Of a stretch of DNA of 64,000 nt, positions 1-35,789 are shown piece by piece. The notes beneath the pieces are model-generated. The model did not search any database. It had not been told where the DNA came from and saw only the letters and a program-made list of their open reading frames with translations. Source of the stretch: an uncultured Prolixibacteraceae bacterium (lineage in GTDB: Bacteria; Bacteroidota; Bacteroidia; Bacteroidales; Prolixibacteraceae); the NCBI GenBank assembly GCA_942493345.1, contig OW818695.1, positions 2,021,719 through 2,085,718 of the forward strand. Direction: 5' to 3'. Both the position numbers and the translations under genes were made by a program. How positions within the stretch are numbered: position 1 is the stretch's first letter; each line of letters begins with the position of its first letter.

Positions 1-832
1 CTTCGGTTTGCCCTCCCCACGGACGGTTGTTCAAAGTAGCTGTGATCACTTTCTGTCCGGCCTCTGCAAGCATTTTCATCAACGGACGCAAGGCGTTCCA
101 GTGAGCTTCCGACCATGGATCAACACCTTGTACTCGTGCCACAGAATAAGGATTTTGCCACAAGTCGAGATGAAAACTCCATTCCGAAGCAGGCGGAAGA
201 ACCCGGGGAAGAACCTCAACGTTAAAAGTAAAGGAACTATGTTTTTTACCGGCAGCAAATAATTGCATGGTGGAAGTATAGGTTCCGGGAGTCGTACCCG
301 AGGGGATGTCAATGGTTACCCAAACAGGCCGGGTGGTTTGCGGTTCCAGATCGAAACATTCCAATGGATCGAGCATGTCGGGACTAAGCGAGGACGCAAA
401 ATCTTCGGGTTGACGTTTTCCGCAGCCATTACCAAATTCATCGGTTAGCACGTATCGTACAAATCGTGCCTGCGCAACAGATGCCGGAAGGATTTCTCCT
501 CCGGAAGATTTGAAATCGGAAAATACACATTCGACCTGCTTGGTTACTTCCTTGCTCCAAAGAACCAACTGAGCTGAAACACGTTCTCCCTGCCATGCAG
601 CGCGTTCCCAACTGTTTTTTGTTACCCCGGTTGGAACTGAACTTTTGGCGTACAAGAGGTCGATTGATCCGACTGAAGCGTGAAGACCGGATCCTAATGC
701 ATTCCAGTCGGCCAGACTATCCGGCGAAGGATCAGCTGCTTCAACATAAGTTGGACAATCTTTAACCGGTCGTTGCGGTGTACATGCTGCTGTCACGACG
801 ATAGCGAAAAGAATAATAAAAACTTGTTTCAT
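1..832 (-). CDS. Secreted lipoprotein, glycoside-hydrolase-like (DUF4091/GH123-like guess), N-terminal part; the gene runs off the left window edge
   Basis: Absent from the ORF track because it has no stop inside the window. The reverse complement of 830-832 is ATG, followed by MKQVFIILFAIVVTAAC (lipobox). The frame then stays open to base 1 (...FHLDLWQNPYSVARVQGVDPWSEAHWNALRPLMKMLAEAGQKVITATLNNRPWGGQTE). The family call is from memory of similar Bacteroidota proteins. Confidence 0.55.
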   Translation of the reverse strand, partial: MKQVFIILFAIVVTAACTPQRPVKDCPTYVEAADPSPDSLADWNALGSGLHASVGSIDLLYAKSSVPTGVTKNSWERAAWQGERVSAQLVLWSKEVTKQVECVFSDFKSSGGEILPASVAQARFVRYVLTDEFGNGCGKRQPEDFASSLSPDMLDPLECFDLEPQTTRPVWVTIDIPSGTTPGTYTSTMQLFAAGKKHSSFTFNVEVLPRVLPPASEWSFHLDLWQNPYSVARVQGVDPWSEAHWNALRPLMKMLAEAGQKVITATLNNRPWGGQTE

Positions 833-1141: not shown

Positions 1142-2212
1142 TCAATATGAAATGTCGTATTGGTCGAATGATTCGGTCCGCCAGGCCAAATGCCTTGTTG
1201 AAGGAGATGCCCAAAATAAAGGAGAGAAGGTACGTACCTTTATCGTTTTCTGATCGGGCAAAAATTCCAGGATACGGAGCCATCCGTCGCCGCCGTTGCC
1301 ATGCCAGCCCCCGCCTTCACGCTGGGCATTGAAAAGCATCTGATGCACTTTCTTACCGGCCAGGTTGTCGTCTTCCCGGTAGCTGACCATTCCTTCATGT
1401 GATTCCGTGTCAGCAATATGACCACAAAAAACGAACTTCATGTTTGCCGATGGTTGTACAAAATCATTCCAGATCGCGATTCCATAGTTTGCATCGACCA
1501 ACGCATACTTTTCATTGTCGATCCTCTGCCCTTTTGAATCCTGATAACTGTGCGTCAGCAGAACACCCAAATAGTCTTTATATTCAGGCCTCGCAGCCAC
1601 CTGTTTTGCCCATTCCAGCATTTCTGCCCGCGGGGCGAATTCGAGTGAAAGTACGAGGAATGATTGTCCGAACGGAGATTTCCATTGATAGCAGGCATTT
1701 TCAAGCGTTTTTACTCCTGTTGCATTCGGGGCCATTTCAACCAGCAGAGATTGTGTCAGCAGGTTTCCCTGCGGAGGAAAATAACTGTTGAACTGTGAGT
1801 ACCGGTTTTCGGCGCTTTTAATACCATAATCATGATTGCCCGTGCACAGAATATAGGGTATCCGATTGTTTAATTTACTGAAGGCCGACCCGGCTGCTTC
1901 CCATTGTTGAAGGCTGGTCTGGTCGCCATTCTTTCCGTCGGCAACAAGTATATTGTTCTGTTCAACAAGATCGCCGACACAAAGCACCAGTTGAATACTC
2001 AACTTGTCCTTTTGATCGGCAATCCAACCGGTAACCAGTTGAAACAGGGGCTGATTGCGTTCAAATTTATTGTAAGTCTGAGGATCGGGCAATAAAATCC
2101 AGGTGTACGAATTTGGATCGGAAAGTTTTGGCGCATTGTCCAGGGTTTGTTGCGCAAATAGTTGAAACCATGCCAACAGGAAGATAACGGAAGAAAGAAT
2201 CAGTTTCTTCAT
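1142..2212 (-). CDS. Secreted calcineurin-like metallophosphoesterase
   Basis: 356-aa ORF with a signal peptide (MKKLILSSVIFLLAWFQLFAQ). Metallophosphoesterase motifs present: VGDLVEQNN, CTGNHDYG, LLTHS, CGHIADTESHEG. Confidence 0.85.
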   Translation of the reverse strand: MKKLILSSVIFLLAWFQLFAQQTLDNAPKLSDPNSYTWILLPDPQTYNKFERNQPLFQLVTGWIADQKDKLSIQLVLCVGDLVEQNNILVADGKNGDQTSLQQWEAAGSAFSKLNNRIPYILCTGNHDYGIKSAENRYSQFNSYFPPQGNLLTQSLLVEMAPNATGVKTLENACYQWKSPFGQSFLVLSLEFAPRAEMLEWAKQVAARPEYKDYLGVLLTHSYQDSKGQRIDNEKYALVDANYGIAIWNDFVQPSANMKFVFCGHIADTESHEGMVSYREDDNLAGKKVHQMLFNAQREGGGWHGNGGDGWLRILEFLPDQKTIKVRTFSPLFWASPSTRHLAWRTESFDQYDISY

Positions 2213-2486: not shown

Positions 2487-3713
2487 TTATAAATTTAAAG
2501 TACCGAGTGTTTCACCACGATCATCTATCATTTTAAGATTTAATGCCTGCCCGGTTATCTTTATATCGATAATGGTTCGATTTCCATCTTTTGGACCGCC
2601 ACCAATCACGATGGGATATTCATGCTGCCCTTTTACCGGTTGATGAATACCCGATTTGTGCGTATGACCGCATAACATCAAATCTATTTTTGAGACATTA
2701 AAAATAGGCCCCCATATCTCGTTATAATGTTCGGAAGCATGTGCATCGCCACCCAGATAATAAGCAGGAATATGCATAAATACTACTTTGTATTTTGCCT
2801 TTTTAAAGGATTTTTTCTGAACTTCTTTTTCCAGCCACTTACCTTGTTGTTCGCGGTAAGCATCAAAATCGATAATTCCTCCATTAACAGGATCTTCGTC
2901 GGATTTTGTTTCACCCGAATCTAAGACAATGCCATACATTGGGCCATATTGAAATGAATAGTAATATTTATTTTCTCCGCCATCAACGTATTTACCCAAC
3001 TCTCTGGCATAAGTACTCCATGTTTCGTGATTTCCTCTTGCAAAGAAAAAAGGAATTGTTGTTGCACCCAAGTCGGTAAGCGGATTTATCAAATGGTCAA
3101 CGATCTGATTCTCATCTTCCACCTTACTTAATATATCACCATTTAAGAGAACAAAATCCTTTTTGCCAGAGCTTTGTTTCATTAAAGCAGCAAATGATTC
3201 AGGACGATCGTGTAAATCGTTAAAAACAACAAATTCGACACTGTCCATATCCTTTGATAAGGTTGTAAAAGAATATACTTCGCTGTAACCGGGCTCACCA
3301 AACGATTGACGTTTCCGCTCCATATTCTCAGTTTTTCTGGAAACAGCCCTGTAATAATACGTTTTACCAGGCAACAGATTTGAAAGTGTAATCGCATGAA
3401 CCGTATTATCTACCTGAACCATGCCGTCTTCTGTTTGTTGAGCCTTCTGATTAAGTGTTTGAGGGTTTTCTCCATATTCAACCCAGCTATGGCACGGGCT
3501 ATTTGTGATCCAGCGTATGTTTATACGATCTGTTTTTACAGCCTGCAGATAAGGCTTACACTTCATGTTCCCGGTTGCCCCTTCTACTATTGGTGTAGTT
3601 TCCGAAAATCCTTTAAGAGGGCTAAAACCTACCGCCGCACCAATTAAACCAATGGAAGTTAAAAATTTTCTTCTGTTAAATTGTTGATTAATTTGCTCTT
3701 GCATACTATTCAT
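2487..3713 (-). CDS. Purple-acid-phosphatase-like metallophosphoesterase with a twin-arginine signal
   Basis: 408-aa ORF with a Tat-type N-terminus (NRRKFLTSIGLIGAAVG). Motifs present: FNDLHD, NGDILS, RGNHETW, FMHIP, CGHTHKSG. An N-terminal beta-domain precedes the catalytic core. Confidence 0.85.
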   Translation of the reverse strand: MNSMQEQINQQFNRRKFLTSIGLIGAAVGFSPLKGFSETTPIVEGATGNMKCKPYLQAVKTDRINIRWITNSPCHSWVEYGENPQTLNQKAQQTEDGMVQVDNTVHAITLSNLLPGKTYYYRAVSRKTENMERKRQSFGEPGYSEVYSFTTLSKDMDSVEFVVFNDLHDRPESFAALMKQSSGKKDFVLLNGDILSKVEDENQIVDHLINPLTDLGATTIPFFFARGNHETWSTYARELGKYVDGGENKYYYSFQYGPMYGIVLDSGETKSDEDPVNGGIIDFDAYREQQGKWLEKEVQKKSFKKAKYKVVFMHIPAYYLGGDAHASEHYNEIWGPIFNVSKIDLMLCGHTHKSGIHQPVKGQHEYPIVIGGGPKDGNRTIIDIKITGQALNLKMIDDRGETLGTLNL

Positions 3714-3999: not shown

Positions 4000-5625
4000 T
4001 TACTTTTTTAAATTATTTTCCAACGCCATCATTACTTTAGCCGGGTAAACCACACTGTTTAACCAGAAATTCATTGGATATTTAGTAAACATCGTTGGGT
4101 AATCTCCATTGTGTTCTTTTTGAACAAGGGTCAAGGCATTCGCAATTGATTTCGCTTTGGCAAGATAAATTTCCTTTTTTGTAGCGGCATAGGCCTCCCA
4201 ATATGTTTCAATCATCACGCCGGCAGTTCTTGTAACCGGCATAAAAAATCCATATTGTTCCTGAACCGAAGGGGTAATCCAGTTTTTAGAATTCCACCCG
4301 GGGCTTTGTTCCTTGTCTGGAGTATCGTGTATTATAATTGGCAGTGGTTTTTCCCAAATAACAAACTGATCTTCTGCAAAACGAATAAGCTCTTCCGCCA
4401 GTGAAATTTGTATATGGTTTTTCATAAGATATACGGCCATATCACATGCCTGTTCCCGACTGTGCCTCACATAGGGTGGCAATGCCTTAACATCTTCAAA
4501 TTGCGCCTGCCAGTTAAAAGTCTTCACTGGATTTTCCATTATCCAGTTTAAGGCATTTTTTGTAGGATTATCTAATCCGGCGACTCCGTAATTTTTCCGT
4601 AATCTGTCAAAATAATTTATAACAGCAGTAGGAATCGATATATTAGGAGCAGTAGGTTCGCCCGTTTCATAATCGGCGAATAAGTACCAGCTTCCGTTAT
4701 CCAATTGGTTTTTCAAATATGTATCAGAAATGCGTTTTGCAGCATCGAAATATTTTTTATCCCCGATAAGATCATATAAATCGAGGAAAGCATTGCCTGC
4801 ATCGGCACCCATCACAGTAAAATTATTTCTAAGATTCATGTGCGAACCGGGCTTATTTTTTATTCTGGGTCCAAAATATGTTGGAACGAAATATTCCCAA
4901 GCCGAACCTTTTTCATAGCTGATGTTAATCATATAATCTGCTACAATTTTTGCAAGTTCGACAGACCGTTTAGCGTCATCCGAATTCGCTTTCAACCTCG
5001 CATGTGTGACTGCACCAACAACAAGGGCACTGTATATCTTTGCTGGATACCTGTAATATTGATACTCATGATCAGGAGCCTTATCCTTAAGCCAGCATTC
5101 TATATAATCTTTATGCAACAGGTTATTCAGTGCAATTTTAGCACTTTCATCGTATGGCATTACTGCCTTATGGTATGGCCCGTTAAAATAAGCAGCTTTA
5201 TAATACTCCCCGCTTCCGGCCAAGCCTACACTGTCGCCATTCGCATTTAAAGCAATAACCTTTAAACTAAAAGTACCGGTGGGCATTGATGCCCAAACTT
5301 TACTTAAAGGAGAATAAGGCACTTTGCTTTCAAACGTATATTGGCTATTGTCTTCGGATTTGACTACATAGTTATACCTTGCTGCATTCTGGATTAATTT
5401 ATAATCAAAGGCCGGGGCGTAAATAAACTGATGGGCCTTCCCATTCCAGAACGGTGTTTTTCCAAGCTCTCCCGGGCGGATAGGAATAATCGATTCTTCT
5501 TTTGCTATTTCACCAAAAGTTTTCTCTTCTCCGGTTTTTACTCCAGTAAGTGATTTGCAGGAATATAACATCCCTGCAAATGTTATTAATGTGGCATAAA
5601 AGATTATACTTCTTTTCATTTTCAT
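4000..5625 (-). CDS. Secreted lipoprotein of unknown function, paralog 1 of a triplicated ~545-aa family
   Basis: 541-aa ORF with a lipobox (FAGMLYSCKS). It shares long motif blocks with 5697-7352 and 9064-10707: FIYAPAF, YYRYPAKI, GAVTxARLK, DAGNAxLDLYDL, NGSWY, SREQxCDMAxYL, LAEELIRFAEDQF, GDYPTxF. Confidence 0.85.
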   Translation of the reverse strand: MKMKRSIIFYATLITFAGMLYSCKSLTGVKTGEEKTFGEIAKEESIIPIRPGELGKTPFWNGKAHQFIYAPAFDYKLIQNAARYNYVVKSEDNSQYTFESKVPYSPLSKVWASMPTGTFSLKVIALNANGDSVGLAGSGEYYKAAYFNGPYHKAVMPYDESAKIALNNLLHKDYIECWLKDKAPDHEYQYYRYPAKIYSALVVGAVTHARLKANSDDAKRSVELAKIVADYMINISYEKGSAWEYFVPTYFGPRIKNKPGSHMNLRNNFTVMGADAGNAFLDLYDLIGDKKYFDAAKRISDTYLKNQLDNGSWYLFADYETGEPTAPNISIPTAVINYFDRLRKNYGVAGLDNPTKNALNWIMENPVKTFNWQAQFEDVKALPPYVRHSREQACDMAVYLMKNHIQISLAEELIRFAEDQFVIWEKPLPIIIHDTPDKEQSPGWNSKNWITPSVQEQYGFFMPVTRTAGVMIETYWEAYAATKKEIYLAKAKSIANALTLVQKEHNGDYPTMFTKYPMNFWLNSVVYPAKVMMALENNLKK

Positions 5626-5696
5626 TTTTCATTTAAAATTTTGGGCACTTCTAGTGATCGCTCTTTTTGCAAATCATATCGAACCATGAATGTTTC

Positions 5697-7352
5697 TTAT
5701 TTACTTAATTCCTTCAAATTATTTTCGAGCACCATCATCATCTTGGCAGGGTAAACCACACTGTTTAACCAAAAATTCGATTTGTAATTCGAAAATAAAG
5801 TTGGATAATCCCCGTCATGTTCGTTTTGTACAACCGTAAAGGTATTTGCAATGGACAGAGCCTTGGCTAGGTATAAATCTTTTTTTGTGACTTTATACGC
5901 CTCACGGTAAGTTTCCATCATAATACATGCAGCCCGGCCAACCGGTTCCCAAAAAACATATTGCTCCTGCACACCAGGGGTAATCCAATTTTCAGGATTC
6001 CATGCGGGACCTTGCCCTTTGTTCCCACTTTTAGGCGCAGGTTTTTCCCAAATTATAAACTGATCTTCAGCAAAACGAATCAATTCCTCCGCCAATTGCA
6101 GATTTTGCGGATTGCCATTAATATTCTTCAAAAGATACATTGCCATATCGCAAACCTGTTCCCGGCTTTGGTTCTTATAGGATGGCTTTGCAACAATATC
6201 TTCAAACTGGCCTTGCCAGTCATACGTTTTAACCGGGTTATCCATGATCCATTGCAACGCTTTTTTTGTAGCATTTTCAAGGTCTGAAATATTATAGTCG
6301 CGGCTCAATCGGTCAAAATAATTAATGGTTGACGTTGGAATCGCAATATTGGGAAGAGCGGGTTTGCCTGTATTGACATCGATGAACATGTACCAGCTCC
6401 CGTTGTCCAACTGCGTTTTCACATAGGTCCGTGCGATCCGTTCTGCCGCATCAAGGTATTTCTTGTCGGAAGTAAGGTCATATAAATCTAAATAAGCATT
6501 ACCGCCATCGGCAGCCGAAATAATAAGATCATTGTTCGTATTAATATAAGGAGTCACCTCTTTAAAAATTGCCTCGTATCCTCTATATGTTGGCGGAAAA
6601 TATTCCAACGGTGTTCCTTTCTCGAAACTGACACTAATCAAATAATCAGCAATAATACAGGCTAGTTCAGTATAACGTTTAGCATCGGGTGTGTTTGATT
6701 TTAACCTGGCCTGAGTGACTGCACCGATAACTAAAGCTCCCATGATTTTTGCAGGATATCTGTAATACTCATATCCAGGGTCGGGCGCTTTATGTGTAAA
6801 CCAGTAATTAACGAAATCCTTCTTCAGTAACTTATCCAAAGCAATCATGGCGCTTTTGTCATACGGCATTACTGGTTGATGATAGATTCCGTTAAAATAT
6901 GCAGCACGATAATATTTGCCTTCGCCGGCAACGCCTAATATTTGCCCGGTCGATGAAATCCCGGTTACTTTTAAAGTAAAACCCCCAACCGGGATTGAAG
7001 TCCAGACCATACTTAACGGGGCATAAGGAACCCTGCTCTCAAAATTGTACTTACTTGAATCTGTTAATGAAACAATTTCATACAGGTATTTATCGGATTT
7101 ATCAACGATTTTGTAGTTAAATGCTGGCGCGAAAATAAACTGGCGCGAAAATTCATTCCAAAATGAAATTTCACCCGGGATGCCCGGACGAACCGGAATA
7201 ATTGATTCCTGTAAGGCTTGTTGTCCATACATACTTTTACCGTCAAACTGGGCCTGAACTGATATATTAACAAAGCATATTAATCCCAAGAAGAATAAAC
7301 CTACTTTAATCTTTTGGGGAAGATTCACTGAAAAAAAAGAATAGTTATACAT
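5697..7352 (-). CDS. Secreted protein of unknown function, paralog 2 of the triplicated family
   Basis: 551-aa ORF with a signal peptide ending VQAQ and the same motif blocks as paralogs 1 and 3. Confidence 0.85.
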   Translation of the reverse strand: MYNYSFFSVNLPQKIKVGLFFLGLICFVNISVQAQFDGKSMYGQQALQESIIPVRPGIPGEISFWNEFSRQFIFAPAFNYKIVDKSDKYLYEIVSLTDSSKYNFESRVPYAPLSMVWTSIPVGGFTLKVTGISSTGQILGVAGEGKYYRAAYFNGIYHQPVMPYDKSAMIALDKLLKKDFVNYWFTHKAPDPGYEYYRYPAKIMGALVIGAVTQARLKSNTPDAKRYTELACIIADYLISVSFEKGTPLEYFPPTYRGYEAIFKEVTPYINTNNDLIISAADGGNAYLDLYDLTSDKKYLDAAERIARTYVKTQLDNGSWYMFIDVNTGKPALPNIAIPTSTINYFDRLSRDYNISDLENATKKALQWIMDNPVKTYDWQGQFEDIVAKPSYKNQSREQVCDMAMYLLKNINGNPQNLQLAEELIRFAEDQFIIWEKPAPKSGNKGQGPAWNPENWITPGVQEQYVFWEPVGRAACIMMETYREAYKVTKKDLYLAKALSIANTFTVVQNEHDGDYPTLFSNYKSNFWLNSVVYPAKMMMVLENNLKELSK

Positions 7353-7421
7353 GTGTATTAAATTTTAAAAATTAGAATAATAAATTCTCTTGAATAATAT
7401 CGTGTCGATAAACAATCATTC

Positions 7422-9026
7422 TTAATTACGTTCAGCAATGGTATATTTCCCTTTCTGAGTAAATTCCCTTCGAAACATATCGGTTGCTTTAACTTCAACG
7501 GTATGTTCACCTGCGGGCAAACTACTGTCAAGTCGAATCCACCATAAATGATCGCTTTGAGCTGGGCGTCCCGGTCTTCTTTTACCTGACAACAGAGTTT
7601 TGGTAGTATCCCACTTTAACATTGAATTTAAATAAGAAGGATCATAATCATTCTTTAATTCCATTTTTCCCCATTTTCCTCCATCAATACGATATTCGAC
7701 TTTATCACTTTCATATCCTATAAAAAAATTAGCATAAAGCCACCCTGCAACTTTTTCTTTTTTCTCAATAATTTTTGGCATCCATATCTCCATTTGATAA
7801 TCCTGTGGTTTTCCTGCTGCTTTGTAATCTATGGTATATTGGGTATCCGTAAAATTAATATAGGCATATCCCTTAAGTGTTCCATCTGCCATAGTAGAAA
7901 CAGGGATACCTTTTGCATCAAGCTCTCCCGAGTACCAGTTTCCGCAGGTTGTACCAACATTGTAATGATGATGAGGTTTTTCTTGCTTCCATCCGTCTGC
8001 TTTTGTAAAGAATTCCTGATACTGAATATGAGTATGGGCAGACAAGGATAGTGTATATGGGAAATCGGACAAAAGGTCAAATATACGTTGTTTGTATGCC
8101 GTTTCGACCTGTTCATTTCTACGCTGTAGAGGAGCATGCATAGCGAAAACAACCAGCTTGTTTTTGGGAACAAATTTCAAATCGTTTTCTATAAATTTGA
8201 GTTGGTCCTCTCGTAAATAATCATCTTTCTTATCTTCTCCTTTTGAATTGGGAAAAATAATATTATCAATAATGACGAAGTGCACATTGCTGTAATTAAA
8301 CGAATAATTGGCAGGGCCAAAATTAGCTTCAAAACTCTCGTCGGATAGACTATCTGCCGTTACGTCTTTATTCATATCATGATTTCCAAGCACATTATAC
8401 CAAGGAATACCTGCTCTGCTGACCGCCTTTTTATACGGTTCAAACATGTTTAAATTGTCGAAAGCCATATCGCCGAGGCTTAACCCGAAGGCCGTATTTT
8501 TTATGCCGGTAACTTCATTCATTATGCCCCGGGTAAAGAAGTCGACTTCTTCAAGGTTAGAAATCTGCGGATCACCGAAAACGAGTATAGTAAATTTCTC
8601 GTCTTCAACATTTGGAGTTAGAGCAAAGTCAATGTATTCGGGTAAATTTCCGGTAGGTGAAACACCTTTGTATTTAAGTCTTGGAGAACCTTGGGGCTTA
8701 TGAATGTAATAAAATTGGGGTAGATTATTTTCGTCTACATTAACTTTGTATCCGGATGGTTTAATTACAAATATGATATTGTCGTTATCTACAGGCAATT
8801 TATATTTTCCTTGTTTGTCGGTCAATACAACATCGTGTCCATTTGAAACTGCAACATTGCTAATGCCATTCTCCCGATATTCTTTCGTGTTGTTTCCGTT
8901 AGAATCTTCGAATACAAATCCAGTAACAAGGGATTGTGCATGAAGAGCGAAAACGATTAGCAAGTTTGCCATCAATAAGCATATTCTTTTATTGGATATG
9001 CGATTCATTTTTATCATTAAGTTCAT
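7422..9026 (-). CDS. Calcineurin-like phosphoesterase with N-terminal beta-sandwich and C-terminal accessory domains
   Basis: 534-aa ORF with a signal peptide. The N-terminal part has a GFVFEDSNGN...GKYKL pattern (carboxypeptidase-regulatory-like). Catalytic motifs present: VFGDPQ, LGDMAFDN, LGNHDMN, FAMHAPL, SAHTHIQ. The architecture matches 28902-30407. Confidence 0.85.
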   Translation of the reverse strand: MNLMIKMNRISNKRICLLMANLLIVFALHAQSLVTGFVFEDSNGNNTKEYRENGISNVAVSNGHDVVLTDKQGKYKLPVDNDNIIFVIKPSGYKVNVDENNLPQFYYIHKPQGSPRLKYKGVSPTGNLPEYIDFALTPNVEDEKFTILVFGDPQISNLEEVDFFTRGIMNEVTGIKNTAFGLSLGDMAFDNLNMFEPYKKAVSRAGIPWYNVLGNHDMNKDVTADSLSDESFEANFGPANYSFNYSNVHFVIIDNIIFPNSKGEDKKDDYLREDQLKFIENDLKFVPKNKLVVFAMHAPLQRRNEQVETAYKQRIFDLLSDFPYTLSLSAHTHIQYQEFFTKADGWKQEKPHHHYNVGTTCGNWYSGELDAKGIPVSTMADGTLKGYAYINFTDTQYTIDYKAAGKPQDYQMEIWMPKIIEKKEKVAGWLYANFFIGYESDKVEYRIDGGKWGKMELKNDYDPSYLNSMLKWDTTKTLLSGKRRPGRPAQSDHLWWIRLDSSLPAGEHTVEVKATDMFRREFTQKGKYTIAERN

Positions 9027-9063
9027 TGGGTTTACTTATTGTTTGAGGGATATATTCAGATAA

Positions 9064-10707
9064 TTATTTCTGTTTTGTAAGATTTTTTTGAAACGTCATC
9101 ATCACTTTGGCGGGATAGATGCTGTTGTTGATCCAAAAATTCATCGGGTACTGAGTAAACATCGTCGGATAATCGCCATTGTGTAGTTGCTGAACACGAG
9201 TAAAGTTATTTGCGATTGATATGGCTTTGGCCAGATAAACTTCTTTTTTGGTGGCCATATAGGCATGCCAATAAGTCTCAACCATGAGACCGGTGTTGCG
9301 GGCTGATGGCATCCAAAATCCATATTGCTCGTGAACGATGGGTGTCAACCAATTTTTAGAAAACCAGCCCGGGCCTACTTTGACCGTATCCGAAGCCGGA
9401 CGGATTGTTGTATTACCTACCACAACCAAATCTTCCATTTGCTCCCAAGTGATAAACTGATCTTCAGCAAAACGAATTAATTCTTCTGCCAATTCTATAT
9501 ATTTTGGCTTGCCGTTGCTGTTCTTGAACAAATAGATAGCCATGTCACACGCTTGTTCCCTGCTCATTCGTTGATAGGGAACAGACTTTCGCATATCTAC
9601 ATCTTCGTATTGAGCCTGCCAATAGAATGTCTCTACCGGATTAGCTATCGTCCAGTTAAAAGCATCTTTGGTGGCTTTTCCCAAGCCTTCCACTTTGTAA
9701 TCTTTTTTAAGACGATCGAAATAGTTAATGATTGCTGTAGGAATCGCTATTTTATCTGCCGTTGGTTTTCCGGTTTGAGTATCAACATATAAATACCAGC
9801 TTCCATTTTCCAGTTGCGTTTTCAGATAAGTATTTGCTATCTGTTTTGCCGCATAAAAATATTTTTTCTCTTTCGTAAGATCATAAAGATCGAGATAGGC
9901 ATTACCGGCATCGGCCGCAACAATAATCATATAATTATTCAGCTGCATGTGTGAGGTTTCCTTTTTACCAATCCTGCTTCCATAATAAGTAGGTGGAAAA
10001 TATTCCAATGGCGTACCTTCTTTAAAGCTGATATTTATAAGATAATCAGCCACAATCCGGGCAAGTTCAATCGATCGGGCAACCGTATCGGCTCCCGACT
10101 TTAACCTGGCATAAGTTACAGCACCCACAATCAGTGATCCGAAGATTTTAGCAGGATATCTGTAATATTGATAATCCGGAGCCGGAGCCTTATTTGTCAG
10201 CCAATATTCGACATAGTCTTTATACATGATTTTATCCAACGCAAGCACTGCACTCCTATCGTAAGGCATTACCGGTTTTAGATACGGTCCGTTAAATGGA
10301 GCCGCCCTGAAATATCGTCCTTCCCCTGCCAATCCCAGATATTCTTCCTGTTTTGAAATACCCGTCACTTTGAGGTCGAAACTACCTACCGGCACCAATG
10401 TCCAGACCGGGCTCAACGGAGCATAAGAAATTTCACTCTCAAAACTATATTTACTTGAATCTTTCAAACTCAGAATCTCATATTTATATCGCACTGCACC
10501 TTCAATGGGCTTGATATCAAATGCAGGGGCATAAATAAATCGTTTGGCAAACTTGTTCCAGAAAGGGGATTTACCCGGAAACCCCGGACGAATCGGATTA
10601 GCTGATTTCTCCCACTCGCTTTTGCCAAAATCCGTTTGAGCAAAAGAATTAAAGGGCTTTATTAACCCTGTAAACAAGGTTAATAAAGCACAAATTATTA
10701 TTTTCAT
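9064..10707 (-). CDS. Secreted protein of unknown function, paralog 3 of the triplicated family
   Basis: 547-aa ORF with a signal peptide ending SFAQT and the same motif blocks as paralogs 1 and 2. Confidence 0.85.
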   Translation of the reverse strand: MKIIICALLTLFTGLIKPFNSFAQTDFGKSEWEKSANPIRPGFPGKSPFWNKFAKRFIYAPAFDIKPIEGAVRYKYEILSLKDSSKYSFESEISYAPLSPVWTLVPVGSFDLKVTGISKQEEYLGLAGEGRYFRAAPFNGPYLKPVMPYDRSAVLALDKIMYKDYVEYWLTNKAPAPDYQYYRYPAKIFGSLIVGAVTYARLKSGADTVARSIELARIVADYLINISFKEGTPLEYFPPTYYGSRIGKKETSHMQLNNYMIIVAADAGNAYLDLYDLTKEKKYFYAAKQIANTYLKTQLENGSWYLYVDTQTGKPTADKIAIPTAIINYFDRLKKDYKVEGLGKATKDAFNWTIANPVETFYWQAQYEDVDMRKSVPYQRMSREQACDMAIYLFKNSNGKPKYIELAEELIRFAEDQFITWEQMEDLVVVGNTTIRPASDTVKVGPGWFSKNWLTPIVHEQYGFWMPSARNTGLMVETYWHAYMATKKEVYLAKAISIANNFTRVQQLHNGDYPTMFTQYPMNFWINNSIYPAKVMMTFQKNLTKQK

Positions 10708-10747
10708 TATCCGATCATTATTTTACCGAATAAACAGGTGCTAACTA

Positions 10748-12400
10748 TTAATTTCCAAGATTTGGATTAATATTAACTTCCGCTTGTGGTATAGGCCAAT
10801 ATTCATCAATCCCTTTGCGAAAACTTCGCGTTGTAACAAACCATCTTTTATACGGATCGGCAGGTGTTGAACTGCTCTTTTTGCGGATTGCTGTTTTTGA
10901 AACCGGATATGGGTGCCCGTAAAAATCATTTTTAAGTACCTGGTCAGCAATTCCCCATCTCAGTAAATCCCAAAGTCTGATTCCTTCCATTGCCAGTTCG
11001 ACACGGCGTTCATTGCGAAGAATAGGCCTCAATAAAGAAGCATCTGTTTGAGTTATTGGAGGCATATTAACCGACGCCCTTCCTCTCACCTTATTAATTG
11101 TTTCATTTAATAACGCCTGATCTATCGCCTGTCCTGCTTCAAGTTTTGCTTCCAGGTAACTTAATAAAATTTCGGAATACCTGATAACTGGGACATTACC
11201 TCCGTAGCCAGTTGTCGGGTTTCCGGTGAAGTTTTCTTCAATATACTTTTTCAAAATAAACCCTGTTTTTGAATTTAAGTTTTGAATACGGTCAACAGAT
11301 TTTGCAGAATCTGGGTGCGTATAAATATAAGAAGCTCGAAGGGGCGCACCATTATAATACATTGTATACTTTAACCTTGGATCGCGATTTTTGCCCATAT
11401 CTTTATAATCATACCGGGGATCAGAGTAGGAAAAAGTTGAGCCATCAGTGAATTGATATGCTTCCATCAAACTTCCAAGAGGGTTTACAAGAGTATATCC
11501 TCCGATTGTACGCGGAGATAATTGTTGGATAAGAGCACTGGCAAACAGATTCGGAATAAACTGTGTGCTGAATATATTTTCACGACTATTTTCATTCGAT
11601 TCCAGAAATATAGTACTGTAATTAGGGTCAATAATGTTATCCCCAAAATCAATAATTGTTTTATAGGTAATTGCTGCATCAGCAAATAATTTCTGTGCCA
11701 ATTGAATACGACCCAAAAATGCAAGACATGCCTGCTTACAGACCCTGCCCGTTTCTGTCGAAGGAATATCCTTAAAACGAGGTAAATCAACAGAGGCTTC
11801 CTGGAATTCAGTTGTTACAAAATCTACAAGTTCCTGATGAGAAGCTTTTGTTACTGTATTCGCTTCTTCAGGTGTGAGTGTTTTGGTAATTAAGGGTACA
11901 GAACCGAAATGCTGTGACATGTAGAAATACTGACATGCCCTGATAAATCTCACTTCTGCAATTATCCTTTTCTTACGTGTTTCATCCATTGTCACCTGAT
12001 CAATATTTTCCAGGAAATCGTTACTGCGGGCAATAACTTTATAAGACATGTTCCAGAAATTACCTAATAAACCCAGATTTGATGTCATCGTTCCGTTCGT
12101 CAATTTATGCCAGGTTGTATTATCTCCCTGCCCGTGGTAGGCATTATCTGTAGCTGCTTCAAGAAATATCAAAGCCTGATATGACCACCAGGATGTAGGT
12201 ACCTGTCCGCCGGTATTTACAGCCAGGTCTCCCCTGTAAACTGCCGTAAGTGCAAGCATCGCATTTGATTCACTAGTCCAGAAAGTTGCGTTATCAAATT
12301 CATCCAATGGTGATTTTTCCAGTTGGTCTTTGCAGGAGGTGGCTATTAATATAATAAGTAAAACAATAGTGAAATGCTTTAAATGATGTATGTGTTTCAT
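10748..12400 (-). CDS. SusD/RagB-family outer-membrane nutrient-binding lipoprotein
   Basis: 550-aa ORF with a lipobox (IATSCKD). It lies directly downstream of a SusC gene. The C-terminus is typical of SusD (WPIPQAEVNINPNLGN). Confidence 0.9.
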   Translation of the reverse strand: MKHIHHLKHFTIVLLIILIATSCKDQLEKSPLDEFDNATFWTSESNAMLALTAVYRGDLAVNTGGQVPTSWWSYQALIFLEAATDNAYHGQGDNTTWHKLTNGTMTSNLGLLGNFWNMSYKVIARSNDFLENIDQVTMDETRKKRIIAEVRFIRACQYFYMSQHFGSVPLITKTLTPEEANTVTKASHQELVDFVTTEFQEASVDLPRFKDIPSTETGRVCKQACLAFLGRIQLAQKLFADAAITYKTIIDFGDNIIDPNYSTIFLESNENSRENIFSTQFIPNLFASALIQQLSPRTIGGYTLVNPLGSLMEAYQFTDGSTFSYSDPRYDYKDMGKNRDPRLKYTMYYNGAPLRASYIYTHPDSAKSVDRIQNLNSKTGFILKKYIEENFTGNPTTGYGGNVPVIRYSEILLSYLEAKLEAGQAIDQALLNETINKVRGRASVNMPPITQTDASLLRPILRNERRVELAMEGIRLWDLLRWGIADQVLKNDFYGHPYPVSKTAIRKKSSSTPADPYKRWFVTTRSFRKGIDEYWPIPQAEVNINPNLGN

Positions 12401-12410: not shown

Positions 12411-15400
12411 TTAAAAAGTTATGTCTATGCCAAGTGTATAGGTTGACATGATCGGATAAAATTCTCCGGTTCCATTAACTTCAGGATCCCAACCTTTTTC
12501 GTATTTGCTGAACGTATGAAGATTCTCTCCACTCATATATAATCTTGCATTCGAAATGCCGATATTTTTAAGGGCTTGCTTCGATATATTATACCCAATT
12601 TGAAGATTTTTTACTCTCAAATAAGAACCATCTAATATCCAATAAGAAGATAACAGGGTATTTGGAACTCCACCACCCGGAACTTTTTCTATGCGTGGAT
12701 AAATTGCATTCCTGTCTGGATTTTGCTCCGTCCAGCGACCTTCATATTGCCAGCGTTGTATATTTCCGGTATTCTGGTTCAAGGCCCAGCTTGCATAGCT
12801 TTGAAGTCTGCCTTTAACACCAGCAATACCTTGCAATAAAATACTTAAATCAAACCCTTTATATTTCACTCCAAGGTTAACACCATAGCTATATTTTGGG
12901 ATCTGGCTTCCCAGAACCACCCTGTCATAAGTAGCATTTACAATTCCGTCAGGAACCCCTTCCGGCCCACTTATATCTTTATACCGGATGTCGCCCGGTT
13001 TAGGATTTGGATTTATACTCTGTTGATCATTCGTCGTTTCATAATCGATGACATCCTGTGCATCAACATAAAGCCCATCGGCAACATAACCGTAATAAAG
13101 CGCATAACTACCATTCGAATTTGGATAACCTATAAAAAGGTCGCTACCATTACCAACCATTCCATTGGGCTGATTAATATTACCTACTCCCAAATCAAGA
13201 ACTTTATTGTTTACGATGGTAAAATTTGCACTAATATTATATGAGAATTCGCCCAGAGTATTACTATGATTTGCAGTAAATTCCCAACCCCGATTCTGCA
13301 ATTCTCCTGTGTTTTGCTGCGACAGGCCAAAACCTAAAACATTCGACACACTAGTAGCCGGGCTATATAAAATGTCATAAGTATACCGATCGAAATACGT
13401 TGCGGAAATATTCAATTTGTTTTCAAACACACTGATGTCCACACCAATATCTTTCGTACGGGTAGACTCCCAATGCAGAGTGCTATCAACCAACGTGGTG
13501 CGTGCAGCTCCAGGCGATATTCCACCACCAAAAGAATACGTTGTGCCGGTTGAAGAAATTAAGGTATTTTGATACGGATAATTGGAAATATTCTGATTCC
13601 CTAATACTCCCCATGAAGCCTTTATTTTCAATTCATTTATCCAGGATATATTATCTTTAATAAATTTTTCCTTGCCAATACTCCAGCCTGCAGCTAACGA
13701 AGGGAATACAGCATACTTCTGGCTGGTTGGAAAACGGGAAGATCCATCTCTTCTAACTACACCCTCTATTAAGTATTTACCTGCAAAATTATAGTTTGCA
13801 CGTGCAAATTGCGATTCTAATGCATATTCTGCGCCAGTTCCGTCCGACTGCTGATTATCAGGAGAACCGGTTTGCAATACTGTAAGATCATTACTTGGCA
13901 AATTATCACGATATGCTTCAAAGTTTTCGGCTGTATAATTTTCAAAAGAATAGCCTGCAAGAAAACTAATAAAATGTTTGTTGAATTGTTTTGAATAATC
14001 GGCCAACCCCTGTATGGTATAATATTCATTGTTTCCGGTTTCTTCTCTCAGGAAATTGGGGCCAACTGTTATATCGTTATTCAGTCGTTGCGTTGACCTG
14101 AAGGTTTTATCACGACTAATATTTTGCCTGTATCCTGCGATAAACGATAATTTCAAATCTTTTATCACTTTATAATCCAGTCTTATATTTCCAGTAAGAT
14201 TTAATTGTTTTCCCCAGTAAAAAGATTTGCTTGCAAGATCGGATACAGGAGTTCCGTTGCTGCTCAAACCTACACCAAAGTCTCCATTATCATATTGGCT
14301 AACAAATATATTAGGCAACCTGGCTGCCTGTTCAATCATATTGAGCATATTTCCCGAGCTTCCACCGGCCGGTGCTATAGGCTCGTTCACTTTTGAAGAT
14401 ATAGCCGCTAAGCGTGTAGTTAAACTAAATTTTGGACTAAAGGTGGTAACCATATTCAAACGTACGTTATAGCGTGAATAATCGTTCTTAATTACCATTC
14501 CGTCTTGGTATAAATATCCAAATGACAGATTATATTTATTCGTATTTGTACCGCCGCTTATATTAATATTATGACCGGTTTGCATACCATTTTTAGAAAT
14601 AATAGCATCCAAAAAGTTGGTGTTCGGATAATTAGGGTCATTTTGAGCTCTGTATTTCTCAACTTCATCCATCTGAGCCTGAGTTAATTGTGAAGTACCA
14701 TTTTCCGCTTCATAATACGCCTGTTGGTATTCCCACGAATTTACATATTCTGGCATCGCCGTAGGAACCTGACTGGCGACATAAGAACTTAGCGAAATTT
14801 GGGGCTTTCCCTCTTTCCCCGATTTTGTAGTCACAAGGATCACACCATTTGCGGCCCTGGATCCATAAATAGCCGCAGAAGAAGCATCTTTCAAAACAGA
14901 TATAGTTTCTACATCATTGGGGTCAATATCATTAAAATTATCTACCGGGGTTCCGTCCACCAAAATCAAAGCATTCGGCGCTGCGCCAAAAGAGCCCACA
15001 CCACGAACACTGATGGTTCCGCTGGAGACGCCTGGTCTGCCACCGCGTTGCGTAACAATTACACCTGCAAGTTGGCCCGTTAGAACATTCTTTAATTCAG
15101 ATACCGATCGGCTAGCAATTTTATCAGTCGACATCTGTGCGATTGAGCCAATTACATTTTCACGTTTTTGAGTGCCATATCCTACAACCACAATTTCCTC
15201 CAATCCTTTTACATCTTCGTCAAGGGTTACATTGATTATAGGTCGTCCATTTACAGCTATTTCCTGCGTCTTCATCCCGATAAACGAAAACACCAGCATG
15301 GCATCTCCCATTAAATCATTGAGCGCATAATTTCCTTCCGAATCAGTAATTGTCCCCTGTGCAGTACCTTGGATTGCAACCGTTGCTCCAGGAACAGGCT

Positions 15401-15845
15401 CTTGTCGAACATTTGTTACTTTCCCACTGACTTTTATTTTCTTTTGTGTCTGATAGGAATTACTCCTCAGAACAATCTGACGATCATGTATTTCATAGGA
15501 AACTTCGGTCCCCATAAAAACCAGGTTAAGTAATTCTTCCAACGACTTGTCTTTAATATTGATGTCAACCTTTCTGGTTACATCAACTTCTTCATTCTTA
15601 TACAAGAAAAAGAATTCGCTCTGGTCTTCAATATCCCGCAATACTTCTTTTACTGAAGCATTTTTCACAGAAACACTAAGCTGCGTTTGTTGCGAATAAA
15701 CACTTGCACTGACATGCACAAAGGCGATCATTAGAATAAACAAGGTTAATTTCATAATACGTAACCATTTAAACAAGGGACTAGAGTGTCCCCCGACATT
15801 TAACCACTTTTTTTTCATAAATTTGCAATTATTAGTGTTATACAA
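12411..15845 (-). CDS. SusC/RagA-family TonB-dependent transporter with an N-terminal anti-sigma signalling (STN-type) extension
   Basis: 1144-aa ORF. It has an N-terminal extension (VKEVLRDIEDQSEFFFLYKNEE), a carboxypeptidase-regulatory-like domain (GKVTNVRQEPVPGATVAIQG...TDSEGNYAL), a plug (VVVGYGTQKREN) and a barrel ending in ...GIDITF. The true start is probably the internal MKKKWLNV (15818). Confidence 0.92.
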   Translation of the reverse strand: MYNTNNCKFMKKKWLNVGGHSSPLFKWLRIMKLTLFILMIAFVHVSASVYSQQTQLSVSVKNASVKEVLRDIEDQSEFFFLYKNEEVDVTRKVDINIKDKSLEELLNLVFMGTEVSYEIHDRQIVLRSNSYQTQKKIKVSGKVTNVRQEPVPGATVAIQGTAQGTITDSEGNYALNDLMGDAMLVFSFIGMKTQEIAVNGRPIINVTLDEDVKGLEEIVVVGYGTQKRENVIGSIAQMSTDKIASRSVSELKNVLTGQLAGVIVTQRGGRPGVSSGTISVRGVGSFGAAPNALILVDGTPVDNFNDIDPNDVETISVLKDASSAAIYGSRAANGVILVTTKSGKEGKPQISLSSYVASQVPTAMPEYVNSWEYQQAYYEAENGTSQLTQAQMDEVEKYRAQNDPNYPNTNFLDAIISKNGMQTGHNINISGGTNTNKYNLSFGYLYQDGMVIKNDYSRYNVRLNMVTTFSPKFSLTTRLAAISSKVNEPIAPAGGSSGNMLNMIEQAARLPNIFVSQYDNGDFGVGLSSNGTPVSDLASKSFYWGKQLNLTGNIRLDYKVIKDLKLSFIAGYRQNISRDKTFRSTQRLNNDITVGPNFLREETGNNEYYTIQGLADYSKQFNKHFISFLAGYSFENYTAENFEAYRDNLPSNDLTVLQTGSPDNQQSDGTGAEYALESQFARANYNFAGKYLIEGVVRRDGSSRFPTSQKYAVFPSLAAGWSIGKEKFIKDNISWINELKIKASWGVLGNQNISNYPYQNTLISSTGTTYSFGGGISPGAARTTLVDSTLHWESTRTKDIGVDISVFENKLNISATYFDRYTYDILYSPATSVSNVLGFGLSQQNTGELQNRGWEFTANHSNTLGEFSYNISANFTIVNNKVLDLGVGNINQPNGMVGNGSDLFIGYPNSNGSYALYYGYVADGLYVDAQDVIDYETTNDQQSINPNPKPGDIRYKDISGPEGVPDGIVNATYDRVVLGSQIPKYSYGVNLGVKYKGFDLSILLQGIAGVKGRLQSYASWALNQNTGNIQRWQYEGRWTEQNPDRNAIYPRIEKVPGGGVPNTLLSSYWILDGSYLRVKNLQIGYNISKQALKNIGISNARLYMSGENLHTFSKYEKGWDPEVNGTGEFYPIMSTYTLGIDITF

Positions 15846-15926: not shown

Positions 15927-16892
15927 TCAGGGTTTACTGATCTTTACTATAGTTTCATTGATTTCATATTTCATATCTGATGTTAATGACAATACTTGCA
16001 GCATTTCGCGCAAACTTTCAGTTTTTATAGTTGTGGTGTATCGTTCGCTGATATCCAAGTTCTCGTCAACCACAATTTTGACATCATACCAGCGTTCCAT
16101 TTTTTTCAGTATTTCAGAAAGTGGGGCATTTTCAAAGCGCAATATATTTTCTTTCCAGGAAGTATATAATTCGGTATCGACTTTAAAAAGTTTTGGCGTT
16201 TTTGATTGTTTTGAAAACTCGAATTGTTCTCCGGGACTCAACTCGAATTTCTTATTGAGGCCCGAAAGAAAAATATTTACAGAACCTTCTTCCAGTGTTA
16301 TAAATATATCGTCTTCAGGATAGGAATATACATTAAATTTTGTTCCCAGCACCAAAACGTCTATTGCCCCGGCATGTACGTTAAACGGTTTTCTCTCGTC
16401 TTTTGCTACTTCGAAATAAGCTTCGCCTTCAACAAAAACATTTCGTTGCCGGCCATTAAATACAACCGGATATTTAAACGTTGTACCTGAATTGAGCCAC
16501 ACTTTGGTTCCGTCGTACAAAGTAACGACCGATTTTTCGCCATTAGGCACCAGTATCTCGTTATATTCTTCGGAAAGCTGATTGATTTGTTTTTGCCCGG
16601 TAAAGTAAAGAGACAAGGCCCCGATCAGAAACGCAAAAATAAAGACGGCAGCATATTTCAGGATTGAAAGCAACGGTTTAATACTTACCAATTTGGCAGA
16701 ATTTCCGTTTTCAAAGAATTTTTGAGAATGTTGAGGCTTCACCTCCTTTAAACCAGTAAGTACCCAGAGGTTTTTCAGCTCGTTGTATCTTTTTTGATTC
16801 AACTCTGAAGCGTCGATCCAATCCAGAATATCACGAACTTCATCGGCTGAGAGGATTGTGCCTTGAATGTATTGCATTAACTTTTCTTCCAT
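15927..16892 (-). CDS. FecR-family anti-sigma factor (transmembrane sensor)
   Basis: 321-aa ORF located between an ECF sigma gene and a SusC gene. It has a single central TM segment (YAAVFIFAFLIGALSLYF) and a periplasmic FecR-like domain. Confidence 0.88.
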   Translation of the reverse strand: MEEKLMQYIQGTILSADEVRDILDWIDASELNQKRYNELKNLWVLTGLKEVKPQHSQKFFENGNSAKLVSIKPLLSILKYAAVFIFAFLIGALSLYFTGQKQINQLSEEYNEILVPNGEKSVVTLYDGTKVWLNSGTTFKYPVVFNGRQRNVFVEGEAYFEVAKDERKPFNVHAGAIDVLVLGTKFNVYSYPEDDIFITLEEGSVNIFLSGLNKKFELSPGEQFEFSKQSKTPKLFKVDTELYTSWKENILRFENAPLSEILKKMERWYDVKIVVDENLDISERYTTTIKTESLREMLQVLSLTSDMKYEINETIVKISKP

Positions 16893-16955: not shown

Positions 16956-17543
16956 TTATTTCAGAAAAAATAAAATATAGAGCAGTGGAAGGTATTCTTT
17001 TAGTTCCATCCGAAGATGTTTAAGCGCTTTTGAAATATGGGCCTCTACTGTTTTGATACTGATTCCGAGTTCGTCGGCAATCTCCCTGTTCTTTTTATCT
17101 TCGTAACGGCTTTTTTCGAAAACAGTACGTACCGATAGCGATAACTTGGAAAGGGCTTCGTCAACTTTTTGTTGTAGCTCTTCGAACACAAAGTTGCTGG
17201 TGTCAAAATCAGAGAGGGATTTATAGTTGATTTCCATTTCTCGGACTCTTAAATAGTCACCATACCTTTGCTTCGTCCGTTCTTTGCTGATTTGCTTCAG
17301 CGACTTGTTCTTTGTAACCGTAAACAACCAAGCCTGAATATTCGTATCGTCCTGAAGGTTTTTCCGATGTTCCCAAAGTTCGGTAAAAACATCCTGTACC
17401 AAGCTATTAGCGGCCTCGGCGTCCAGCAAATACTGATTAGCGAAATACGACAATTTTGGGTAGAAAAAGCTGTACAAACCTTCAAACACAGGTTCATCGC
17501 CCGATTTAATTTTTTGTGCTATTTCCGATCCTGATAGGTTCAC
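16956..17543 (-). CDS. ECF-type RNA polymerase sigma-70 factor
   Basis: 195-aa ORF. Region 2 reads LVQDVFTELWEHRKNL and the region 4 HTH reads ELGISIKTVEAHISKALKHLR. Confidence 0.9.
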   Translation of the reverse strand: MNLSGSEIAQKIKSGDEPVFEGLYSFFYPKLSYFANQYLLDAEAANSLVQDVFTELWEHRKNLQDDTNIQAWLFTVTKNKSLKQISKERTKQRYGDYLRVREMEINYKSLSDFDTSNFVFEELQQKVDEALSKLSLSVRTVFEKSRYEDKKNREIADELGISIKTVEAHISKALKHLRMELKEYLPLLYILFFLK

Positions 17544-25322: not shown

Positions 25323-25487
25323 TTTCCTGTTTTTTTGTATCTGTCAAAACTAATTTTTTATACCTGTTATATCAACAGTTAAATAACACATATTGTCACT
25401 CCACGAAAGCGAAGAATCTTCGGTTCAACTCTAATTTACAACAGATTTTTCACTCCGTTCAGCATGACAAAACAATGTTGAGACACA

Positions 25488-26600: not shown

Positions 26601-26615
26601 ATCTTTAATCTAAAA

Positions 26616-27566: not shown

Positions 27567-27592
27567 GTCTGTTTTTTCTATTTAAATTTTTT

Positions 27593-30407: not shown

Positions 30408-30428
30408 CGTCGATTTATTTATACAAAA

Positions 30429-30554: not shown

Positions 30555-30565
30555 CCAGAGATCTT

Positions 30566-32317: not shown

Positions 32318-32332
32318 AACCGTCTTAGTCTT

Positions 32333-35782: not shown

Positions 35783-35789
35783 TGTTTTT

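Follow-up and report, generated by a model that had tools for sequence, protein, structure and literature searches.

We analysed a 64,000-nt stretch of contig OW818695.1 from an uncultured Prolixibacteraceae bacterium, from here on the window, in which three related genes for exported proteins lie behind a SusC/SusD pair. They are paralog A (547 aa, 9064..10707), paralog B (551 aa, 5697..7352) and paralog C (541 aa, 4000..5625), all present in the list of open reading frames (ORFs) on the minus strand at exactly the positions given in a preliminary description of this DNA. The gene order is also the one described there (SusC, SusD, copy A, phosphoesterase, copy B, copy C), and it is part of a longer array, all on the minus strand. 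The array begins with an extracytoplasmic function (ECF) sigma factor (16956..17543; Pfam Sigma70_r2, Sigma70_r4_2 and Sigma70_ECF), the likely regulator of the locus, and a FecR-type anti-sigma factor (15927..16892; FecR and FecR_C), followed by the SusC-like TonB-dependent transporter (12411..15845) and the SusD-like lipoprotein (10748..12400; SusD_RagB 1.6e-42, SusD-like_3). Between copies A and B lies a MetallophosN/Metallophos/MetallophosC phosphoesterase (7422..9026; Pfam 7.4e-17, 2.6e-06 and 2.7e-48), for which a PDB search returns no relative; it is 54% identical to a counterpart in another locus (L014), there placed directly after SusD. Copy C is followed, after a gap of 287 nt, by a purple-acid-phosphatase-like metallophosphoesterase (2487..3713; Metallophos 1.7e-19, Pur_ac_phosph_N 2.1e-13), whose N-terminus weakly resembles a twin-arginine translocation signal with the motif below threshold. 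A third secreted metallophosphoesterase (1142..2212; Metallophos 1.8e-07) is related to an 808-aa protein of a sulfatase-rich locus (L022). Possibly the final gene of the locus is a GH123-like beta-N-acetylgalactosaminidase (1..832; Glyco_hydro_123_N_2 4.9e-44, GH123_cat 1.6e-16), of which the N-terminal part is present before the gene runs off the window. From the ECF sigma gene to copy C, neighbouring genes are separated by 11-82 nt, and thereafter by ~275-310 nt; the GC content is 0.458 in positions 1-2000 versus ~0.37-0.39 across the rest of the locus. Because of the larger gaps and the rise in GC, the membership of the last two or three genes is uncertain; the third metallophosphoesterase and the GH123-like gene may form a unit of their own or have been acquired later. 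Adjacent SusC and SusD genes, co-oriented exported enzymes and a dedicated ECF sigma/FecR regulator make the array a polysaccharide utilization locus (PUL). Promoter, terminator and Rfam scans of the locus returned nothing informative.

The three paralogs are one protein in three diverged versions. MAFFT aligns them end to end, with identities of 58-59% for A-C and B-C and 56% for A-B and a mean column identity of 73%, which bears out the impression, gained by eye, that they are collinear with half or more of their positions shared. The motifs quoted at that time are found in the alignment: IRPG..G...FWN, F(I)YAPAF, YYRYPAKI, GAVTxARLK, DxGNAxLDLYDL, (D/E)NGSWY, WQxQ(F/Y)ED, SREQxCDMAxYL, LAEELIRFAEDQF, GDYPTxF and YPAKxMM, with one or two residues changed in copy B at IVADYxINIS, DAGNA and IPTAxINYFDRL. 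As judged by eye from the N-termini, copy C carries a lipoprotein-like signal (...AGMLYS-C, lipobox-like) and copies A (...NSFA-Q) and B (...VQA-Q) signals like those of signal peptidase I, again as had been proposed. In homolog searches the similarity is far beyond chance (E=0, bit scores >650). The best homolog of copy A is a metagenomic protein, P0002, at 76% identity, and Opitutales proteins reach 65%; copy C is 77.6% identical to L012|10001-11608 (P0056) and copy B 70% identical to L026|9947-11590, these two orthologs being particular copies in a PUL of a Sphingobacteriaceae metagenome-assembled genome (MAG). Each paralog is therefore nearer to an ortholog in another genome (70-78%) than to its siblings in its own (56-59%), so that the triplication is older than this lineage and each copy has persisted as an orthologous group of its own. 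As far as sequence comparison can tell, such retention fits what sub-specialisation predicts, and old, functionally diverged paralogs are our best reading of the three copies. The whole window PUL is orthologous to the Sphingobacteriaceae PUL (L026/L002; SusC 64%, SusD 74% identity). The latter runs SusC, SusD, family member, DUF4838, three family members, DUF4838, DUF4838-like, family member, where by family member we mean here and below a protein of the family of paralogs A, B and C. It has five such copies, and its DUF4838 proteins are replaced in the window by the phosphoesterases and the GH123-like gene.

The preliminary description recognised no family for these proteins, and the searches agree. 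Copies A, B and C stay below the threshold of every Pfam and NCBIfam model; NCBIfam is empty, and the sub-threshold Pfam matches are to GH47, GH127, PL2, the C5-epimerase C-terminal domain and N-acetylglucosamine (GlcNAc) 2-epimerase. The longest of these is Glyco_hydro_47, which aligns over ~240 residues at 19-23 bits against a cutoff of 22.9; the window paralogs score 17.2-19.0, and of three homologs tested two fall below the cutoff and P0002 alone reaches it, at 23.1. The GH127 model gives 12-19 bits against a cutoff of 24.9, and we rejected GH127/GH146 as a home for the family: enzymes of that kind use a Cys nucleophile in a Cys3-Glu zinc site, and that site is absent here, the only invariant Cys being C387 of the close subfamily, with none conserved family-wide. 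PDB searches, whether started from single sequences or from profiles built on 3 and 80 sequences, find only generic helix-hairpin repeats of GH76, LanC-like and N-acylglucosamine 2-epimerase (AGE) proteins, out of register. The best profile match, to the GH76 protein BT2949 at E 6.4e-05, is one of these short, out-of-register hairpins. A literature search on PF25840, on TauE with SusC/SusD and on sulfoquinovosidase and sulfoglycosidase families brought up no article about the family. A confident match to a characterised family, which would have made these ordinary PUL enzymes, appears in none of Pfam, NCBIfam, the PDB and Foldseek.

The family is large. We count at least 475 close homologs, essentially all 'hypothetical', and an exhaustive profile search clustered at 50% identity gives 1152 clusters at E<=1e-3, 744 at 1e-10 and 359 at 1e-30. 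Members occur in at least seven phyla, with loci from Bacteroidota, Verrucomicrobiota, Planctomycetota, Chloroflexi, Paenibacillus, Oscillospiraceae/Acutalibacteraceae, KSB1, Calditrichia, Sumerlaeota, Ignavibacteria and others. A few members carry a name. Four (P0013, P0055, P0056 and P0087) are labelled 'maltose/maltodextrin transport system substrate-binding protein' by JGI, evidently wrongly, and P0121 is a 'D-glucuronyl C5-epimerase C-terminal domain-containing protein' in UniRef; these labels look like annotation artefacts of weak matches. Many members also carry a precomputed weak match to PF25840, 'Ulvan_lyase_N'.

For copy A, AlphaFold2 with the 80-sequence alignment gives a confident model both of the full protein (pLDDT 94.3, pTM 0.91) and of the barrel alone (pLDDT 95.8), in which a beta-sandwich (~35-135) precedes thirteen paired helices (149-546) that form an (alpha/alpha)6 barrel. 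Searched against the PDB with Foldseek, the full-length and barrel-only models give 115-158 matches at E<=1e-3. With the barrel alone, all the listed matches are carbohydrate-active (alpha/alpha)6-7 proteins (GH76, GH47, GH88, AGE epimerases); the full-length model adds PL27 and GH144, together with fold-level matches to complement C3/C5 and other thioester-containing proteins. The best TM scores are 0.60-0.66 (GH76 4c1s and 6u4z, cellobiose 2-epimerase 5zig), at a root-mean-square deviation (rmsd) of 6-7 A and 10-13% identity, and with neither model does any one family stand out. The predicted structure thus places the paralogs in the glycan-active (alpha/alpha)6-barrel fold class. Of the earlier guess of an alpha/alpha-toroid, the glycan-active part is what the model and Foldseek support; prenyltransferases and terpene cyclases were rejected, as there are no structural matches of that kind. 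We also rejected a glycoside phosphorylase, since the paralogs are exported. GH47 alpha-1,2-mannosidases and the GH88/GH105 unsaturated uronyl hydrolases are alpha/alpha-barrel glycan enzymes too, with TM scores of 0.47-0.53 for GH47 and GH88; GH47 (rmsd ~9 A) differs further in being an (alpha/alpha)7, Ca-dependent enzyme.

Two known families come closest in fold, and both have to be weighed. GH76 alpha-1,6-mannanases (BT3792 4c1s, BT2949 4v1r, 6u4z) share with the paralogs the (alpha/alpha)6 barrel, export and Bacteroidota PULs; 6u4z is the best full-length match (E 6.8e-10) and 4c1s has the best barrel TM (0.62/0.66). GH76 enzymes have an adjacent catalytic Asp-Asp pair, which the conserved Glu-Asp pairs of the family recall, and the locus contains phosphoesterases, so the paralogs could be highly divergent GH76-type alpha-mannanases whose substrate is fungal phosphomannan, from which the phosphoesterases would take off mannose-1-phosphate side chains; that BT2949 is the best PDB profile match also speaks for this. 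We regard it as highly improbable. PF03663, the GH76 model, is unmatched even at E<=1 by the three paralogs and three homologs, the PDB matches are the out-of-register hairpins already described, and the likeness in fold comes at 10-13% identity and an rmsd >6 A. Unlike GH76, the family adds a conserved N-terminal beta-sandwich, and mannan enzymes are not its partners: GH92, GH125, GH99 and GH38 occur in 0 of 76 family loci (see below), where the actual neighbours are sulfatases, hexosaminidase-like enzymes, GH43 and GH127. The second family is the AGE superfamily (cellobiose 2-epimerase, GlcNAc 2-epimerase, the sulfoquinovose isomerase YihS), which has the same (alpha/alpha)6 barrel, comparable Foldseek scores and a helix-hairpin motif, 'a.a.L.lYd.T.d..YL..A..i', in common with the paralogs. 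For the barrel alone, cellobiose, glucose and GlcNAc 2-epimerases have the lowest Foldseek E-values; C5-epim_C and GlcNAc_2-epim are near-threshold in Pfam, and one member bears the C5-epimerase name in UniRef. An AGE-type or C5-epimerase-like protein would modify a glycan, or epimerise or isomerise a sugar, rather than cleave it. AGE enzymes are cytoplasmic and carry two catalytic histidines on the ends of inner helices. In our alignments of 80 close and 104 distant members that His pair has no counterpart, for which reason we rejected an AGE isomerase; the family has carboxylate pairs and lysines instead, and it is exported in Gram-negatives. The structural matches are also distant (TM 0.5-0.6, rmsd 6-7 A, 10-12% identity), and the Pfam matches cover 35-55 residues only, as in the case of GlcNAc_2-epim (PF07221), with 13.6-18.9 bits against a cutoff of 23.4 over only ~35-40 residues. 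Sugar epimerases or isomerases of either kind are therefore a very unlikely reading.

Conservation singles out acidic residues. In the broad alignment of 104 members, 26-50% identical to copy A and numbered by it, residues kept at >=90% are W50, N51, P61, Y74 and W102 in the N-domain and, in the barrel, Y184, K187, Y241, G302, Q366-F-E368-D369, E415-D416-Q417-F418, W421, P456, E460-Q461, K494, Q506, G511, W525 and N527. Paralogs A, B and C retain every family-conserved polar residue. No His is invariant or >=90% conserved in either the 80-sequence or the 104-sequence alignment. Members are fused to GH2 of the LacZ type, to DUF4838 (P0196, E 6e-86), to Hepar_II_III_C, to a GH43-like domain and to a GDSL esterase (P0049). 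Those of Gram-positive Firmicutes and of Chloroflexi have no signal peptide and are thus intracellular there. Together, the conservation, the fusions and the signal-less members make an enzyme more likely than a binding protein, a choice between degrading and binding that the preliminary description had left undecided.

Binding nonetheless has points in its favour. The genes stand directly after SusD, one product is a lipoprotein, and the catalytic assignment rests on prediction. Phosphoesterase-only SusCD loci are known from Flavobacterium, where the Pus loci combine SusCD with secreted phosphomono- and diesterases and scavenge inorganic phosphate (PMC8115612). The window has two loci with SusCD and phosphoesterases. 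One of them, at 28902-36773, is phosphoesterase-only; the paralog locus differs from Pus loci, which lack CAZyme-like genes, in its three glycan-enzyme-like copies and its ECF-sigma/anti-sigma control. The paralogs could on these grounds be non-catalytic binders like surface glycan-binding proteins (SGBPs), capturing substrate for SusCD in a Pus-type phosphate-scavenging locus whose sole enzymes are the phosphoesterases. This is quite unlikely. SGBPs are poorly conserved, whereas the carboxylate pairs here are kept across seven or more phyla; Firmicutes and Chloroflexi have intracellular members, organisms without SusCD have the family, GH2, DUF4838 and GH43-like catalytic domains are fused to it, and in several PULs it is the sole candidate depolymerase. 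SusE/F-type proteins are non-catalytic, poorly conserved lipoproteins, Ig-like or beta-sandwich in fold and restricted to PULs; the family differs from them in the alpha-barrel fold, the cross-phylum carboxylates, the intracellular Gram-positive members and the fusions to glycoside hydrolases.

What the family acts on has to be read from its neighbourhoods. We called and clustered the ORFs in 76 non-redundant family loci, of which 16 are multi-copy with two to five members each. The most frequent neighbours are sulfatases (15 loci, 33 genes), SusD (13), SusC (12) and short-chain dehydrogenases/reductases (SDR, 11), followed by MR_MLE dehydratases (9), dihydrodipicolinate synthase (DHDPS)-family enzymes (8), heparinase-II/III-like proteins (8), TauE (7, and additionally L082), SMP30 lactonases (6), SSF symporters (6), FAH hydrolases (5) and GH43 (5). 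GH127, GH20, GDSL esterases and aldose epimerases are found in 4 loci each and metallophosphoesterases in 3, and GH109 and DUF4838 occur among the neighbours too. The phosphorylated glycan that had been suggested as substrate is thus not a trait of the family: metallophosphoesterases accompany it in the window locus, L014 and L022, versus sulfatases in 15 loci and an oxidative sugar-acid pathway in 11, and the phosphate link is confined to a few loci. The DUF4838 domain takes in the GH163 and GH185 hexosaminidases, 6-sulfo-GlcNAcases among them (PMC10570127). These proteins, of unrelated GH20-like TIM-barrel fold, are partners of the family and not relatives, being fused to it in P0196 and interleaved with it in the Sphingobacteriaceae PUL and in L082. 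The partnership suggests a shared anionic substrate that contains N-acetylhexosamine (HexNAc).

The same neighbourhoods bear on another reading, in which the family would be a new (alpha/alpha)6 polysaccharide lyase family, or would work in the manner of the unsaturated-uronyl hydrolases GH88/GH105, on an anionic polysaccharide with uronic acids. Heparinase-II/III-like neighbours and the Hepar_II_III_C fusion point this way, as do weak matches to Pectate_lyase_2 and 'Ulvan_lyase_N', the presence of PL27 and GH88 among the Foldseek matches, the conservation of Y184, Y241, K187 and K494, and SDR, MR_MLE and DHDPS neighbours that resemble an oxidative uronate route. Toroid lyases neutralise the carboxylate of their substrate. 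Five conserved carboxylates and zero conserved His are atypical of them, the lyase matches are sub-threshold and limited to the generic helix hairpin, KduI and KdgK/KdgA-type genes do not recur nearby, and the window locus has no lyase-like gene. We consider a lyase or uronyl hydrolase unlikely.

Beside close homologs, the oxidative pathway takes the form of an operon. In L015, L017, L020 and L023, of which L015, L017 and L023 are Flavobacteriaceae PULs, the order is SusC, SusD, SDR, TauE, DHDPS, SSF, MR_MLE, SMP30, a divergent AraC gene, family member, SDR, FAH, family member, and the two family members are the sole candidate glycan-cleaving enzymes. The SDR-TauE-DHDPS-SSF-MR_MLE-SMP30 operon with its SDR-FAH pair and AraC adjoins family members in these four loci and in L014, L009 and L082, and it is apparently undescribed so far. 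L014 reads SusC, SusD, MetallophosN/C, GH20, family member, SDR, TauE, DHDPS, SSF, MR_MLE, SDR, and L082, with a 74%-identical homolog, reads SusC, SusD, DUF4838, family member, SSF, SDR, TauE, DHDPS and, further on, MR_MLE; their gene content ties the window locus to the pathway. Against NCBIfam, all matches of the pathway enzymes are below equivalog cutoffs. In the PDB, the DHDPS-type protein is nearest to L-2-keto-3-deoxyarabonate (L-KDA) dehydratase (E 3e-39), the MR_MLE protein to unassigned enolases and galactonate dehydratase, and the SMP30 lactonase to regucalcin and the Smp-30/Cgr1 family protein 7plb, which we take to be the Caulobacter xylonolactonase. The sulfofucolytic and sulfo-Entner-Doudoroff (ED) pathways comprise an SDR, a lactonase, an MR_MLE dehydratase, an aldolase and TauE (PMC12421959). 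As these are the enzyme classes of the operon, an anionic galacto-configured sugar would be, by analogy, the leading guess for what it breaks down. The two systems differ in that the sulfofucolytic pathway (PMC12421959) is proteobacterial, with an HpcH-type aldolase, an ABC importer and no member of the paralogs' family; the operon linked to the family lies outside the window. Instead of this operon, L064 (Oscillospiraceae) has genes for a glycyl-radical enzyme and the activase that goes with it, for an aldose epimerase and for a fucose-isomerase-like protein near a family member. Such a set is typical of 6-deoxyhexose or organosulfonate fermentation by gut anaerobes. The members in L064, L067 and L070, from Oscillospiraceae/Acutalibacteraceae MAGs, are among those without a signal peptide.

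Taking fold, conservation and context together, we think it probable that the paralogs are glycan-cleaving enzymes of a large, uncharacterised family. Glycoside hydrolases are the most likely kind, a hydrolase chemistry that we infer. The family is probably a candidate for a new CAZy family, unplaced as judged by Pfam, NCBIfam, the PDB and the literature; what is new is the family, the kind, an (alpha/alpha)6 PUL enzyme, being already known. We also infer the catalytic residues, the anionic substrate and a division of labour among the copies, as follows. The ECF-sigma/anti-sigma pair would control the SusC/SusD importer. Copy C, the lipoprotein, would sit at the membrane, either surface-exposed or periplasmic; copies A and B would work in the periplasm on imported oligosaccharides, and each of the three would attack its own linkage or chain length within one anionic heteroglycan. 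Catalysis would fall to two of the conserved carboxylates E368/D369, E415/D416 and E460, while K187, K494 and subfamily arginines would hold the anionic group of the substrate, and the conserved N-domain loop (FWN) may cap the pocket. The three metallophosphoesterases would strip phosphate (di)ester decorations, and beta-HexNAc would be the target of the GH123-like enzyme, which would take it off. That the paralogs provide the core activity of the locus, with sub-specialisation, had been suggested earlier; the close foreign orthologs and the several foreign PULs in which family members are the sole candidate glycan-cleaving enzymes speak for it, and of the two activities then considered the evidence favours catalysis. 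The anionic substrate is suggested by the sulfatases in 15 loci, TauE in 7 and in L082, the heparinase-II/III-like proteins in 8 and the phosphoesterases here, in L014 and in L022.

Several points weigh against glycan-cleaving enzymes of this description. The catalytic residues are guesses from conservation. In Foldseek, the scores of AGE epimerases equal those of glycoside hydrolases, a lyase mechanism through Tyr, Lys and Arg may operate instead, and the neighbourhoods are heterogeneous, so that no single substrate emerges. The oxidative pathway of the close homologs is not in the 64-kb window. The sequences may already be in a very recent CAZy family, and the enzyme activity of family members is itself predicted, from fold, conservation and context.

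A more specific proposal, which we offer as a tentative one with a minor chance of being right, is that the family is a new glycoside hydrolase family of 'anionic-sugar' glycosidases that would set free a galacto-configured monosaccharide, still sulfonated, sulfated or phosphorylated because no de-esterification comes first, and feed it into an undescribed ED-like pathway. If so, many Bacteroidota would have an ED-like pathway made of an SDR dehydrogenase, an SMP30 lactonase, an MR_MLE dehydratase, a DHDPS-type enzyme and an SDR+FAH branch; TauE would export its sulfur-bearing C3 product, and loci with sulfatases or metallophosphoesterases, the window included, would be a variant that strips the ester instead. 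Large families with zero characterised members severely limit how well PULs can be read and environmental glycan use predicted. This one is widespread in soil, freshwater, marine and gut lineages, and assigning its activity would annotate >1000 sequence clusters and probably define a new CAZy family. The family is tightly linked to an orphan oxidative sugar pathway with a TauE-type exporter and to sulfatases or phosphoesterases, which hints that it takes part in turning over glycans that are sulfated, sulfonated or phosphorylated, a section of the carbon, sulfur and phosphorus cycles that is still poorly mapped. The three window paralogs and their orthologs are a ready set for specificity comparisons.

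Elsewhere in the window, we note some further genes. A sugar catabolic cluster on the minus strand (51946-61593) has a xylose-isomerase-like TIM barrel, an FGGY kinase, a class II aldolase, DUF4432, a sugar transporter of the major facilitator superfamily (MFS) and two ORFs (398 and 442 aa) without a Pfam match; its divergent AraC regulator (60736-61593) and the one in the family-linked pathway loci share 36% identity. An 812-aa ORF (43267-45705, minus strand), with no Pfam match at E<=1e-3, adjoins an nrfA-like cytochrome c552 nitrite reductase (45772-47520). The second ECF/FecR-type SusC/SusD locus, on the minus strand at 28902-36773 and 23943-28843, comprises FecR (35790-36773), SusC (32333-35698) and SusD (30566-32317) and, downstream, MetallophosN/C (28902-30407), an MFS transporter, Metallophos (26616-27566), a PHP-domain protein and FAD_oxidored (PF12831). 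It has no CAZyme-like genes and resembles the Flavobacterium Pus clusters. In all, the 64 kb hold six calcineurin-like metallophosphoesterases, an unusual density (at 1142, 2487, 7422, 26616, 28902 and 61669), the last of which (61669-63552, 627 aa) is a fusion of Metallophos with a PQQ/beta-propeller. This density suggests a heavy investment in organophosphate ester hydrolysis, and organophosphate acquisition is plausibly part of the role of the paralog locus.

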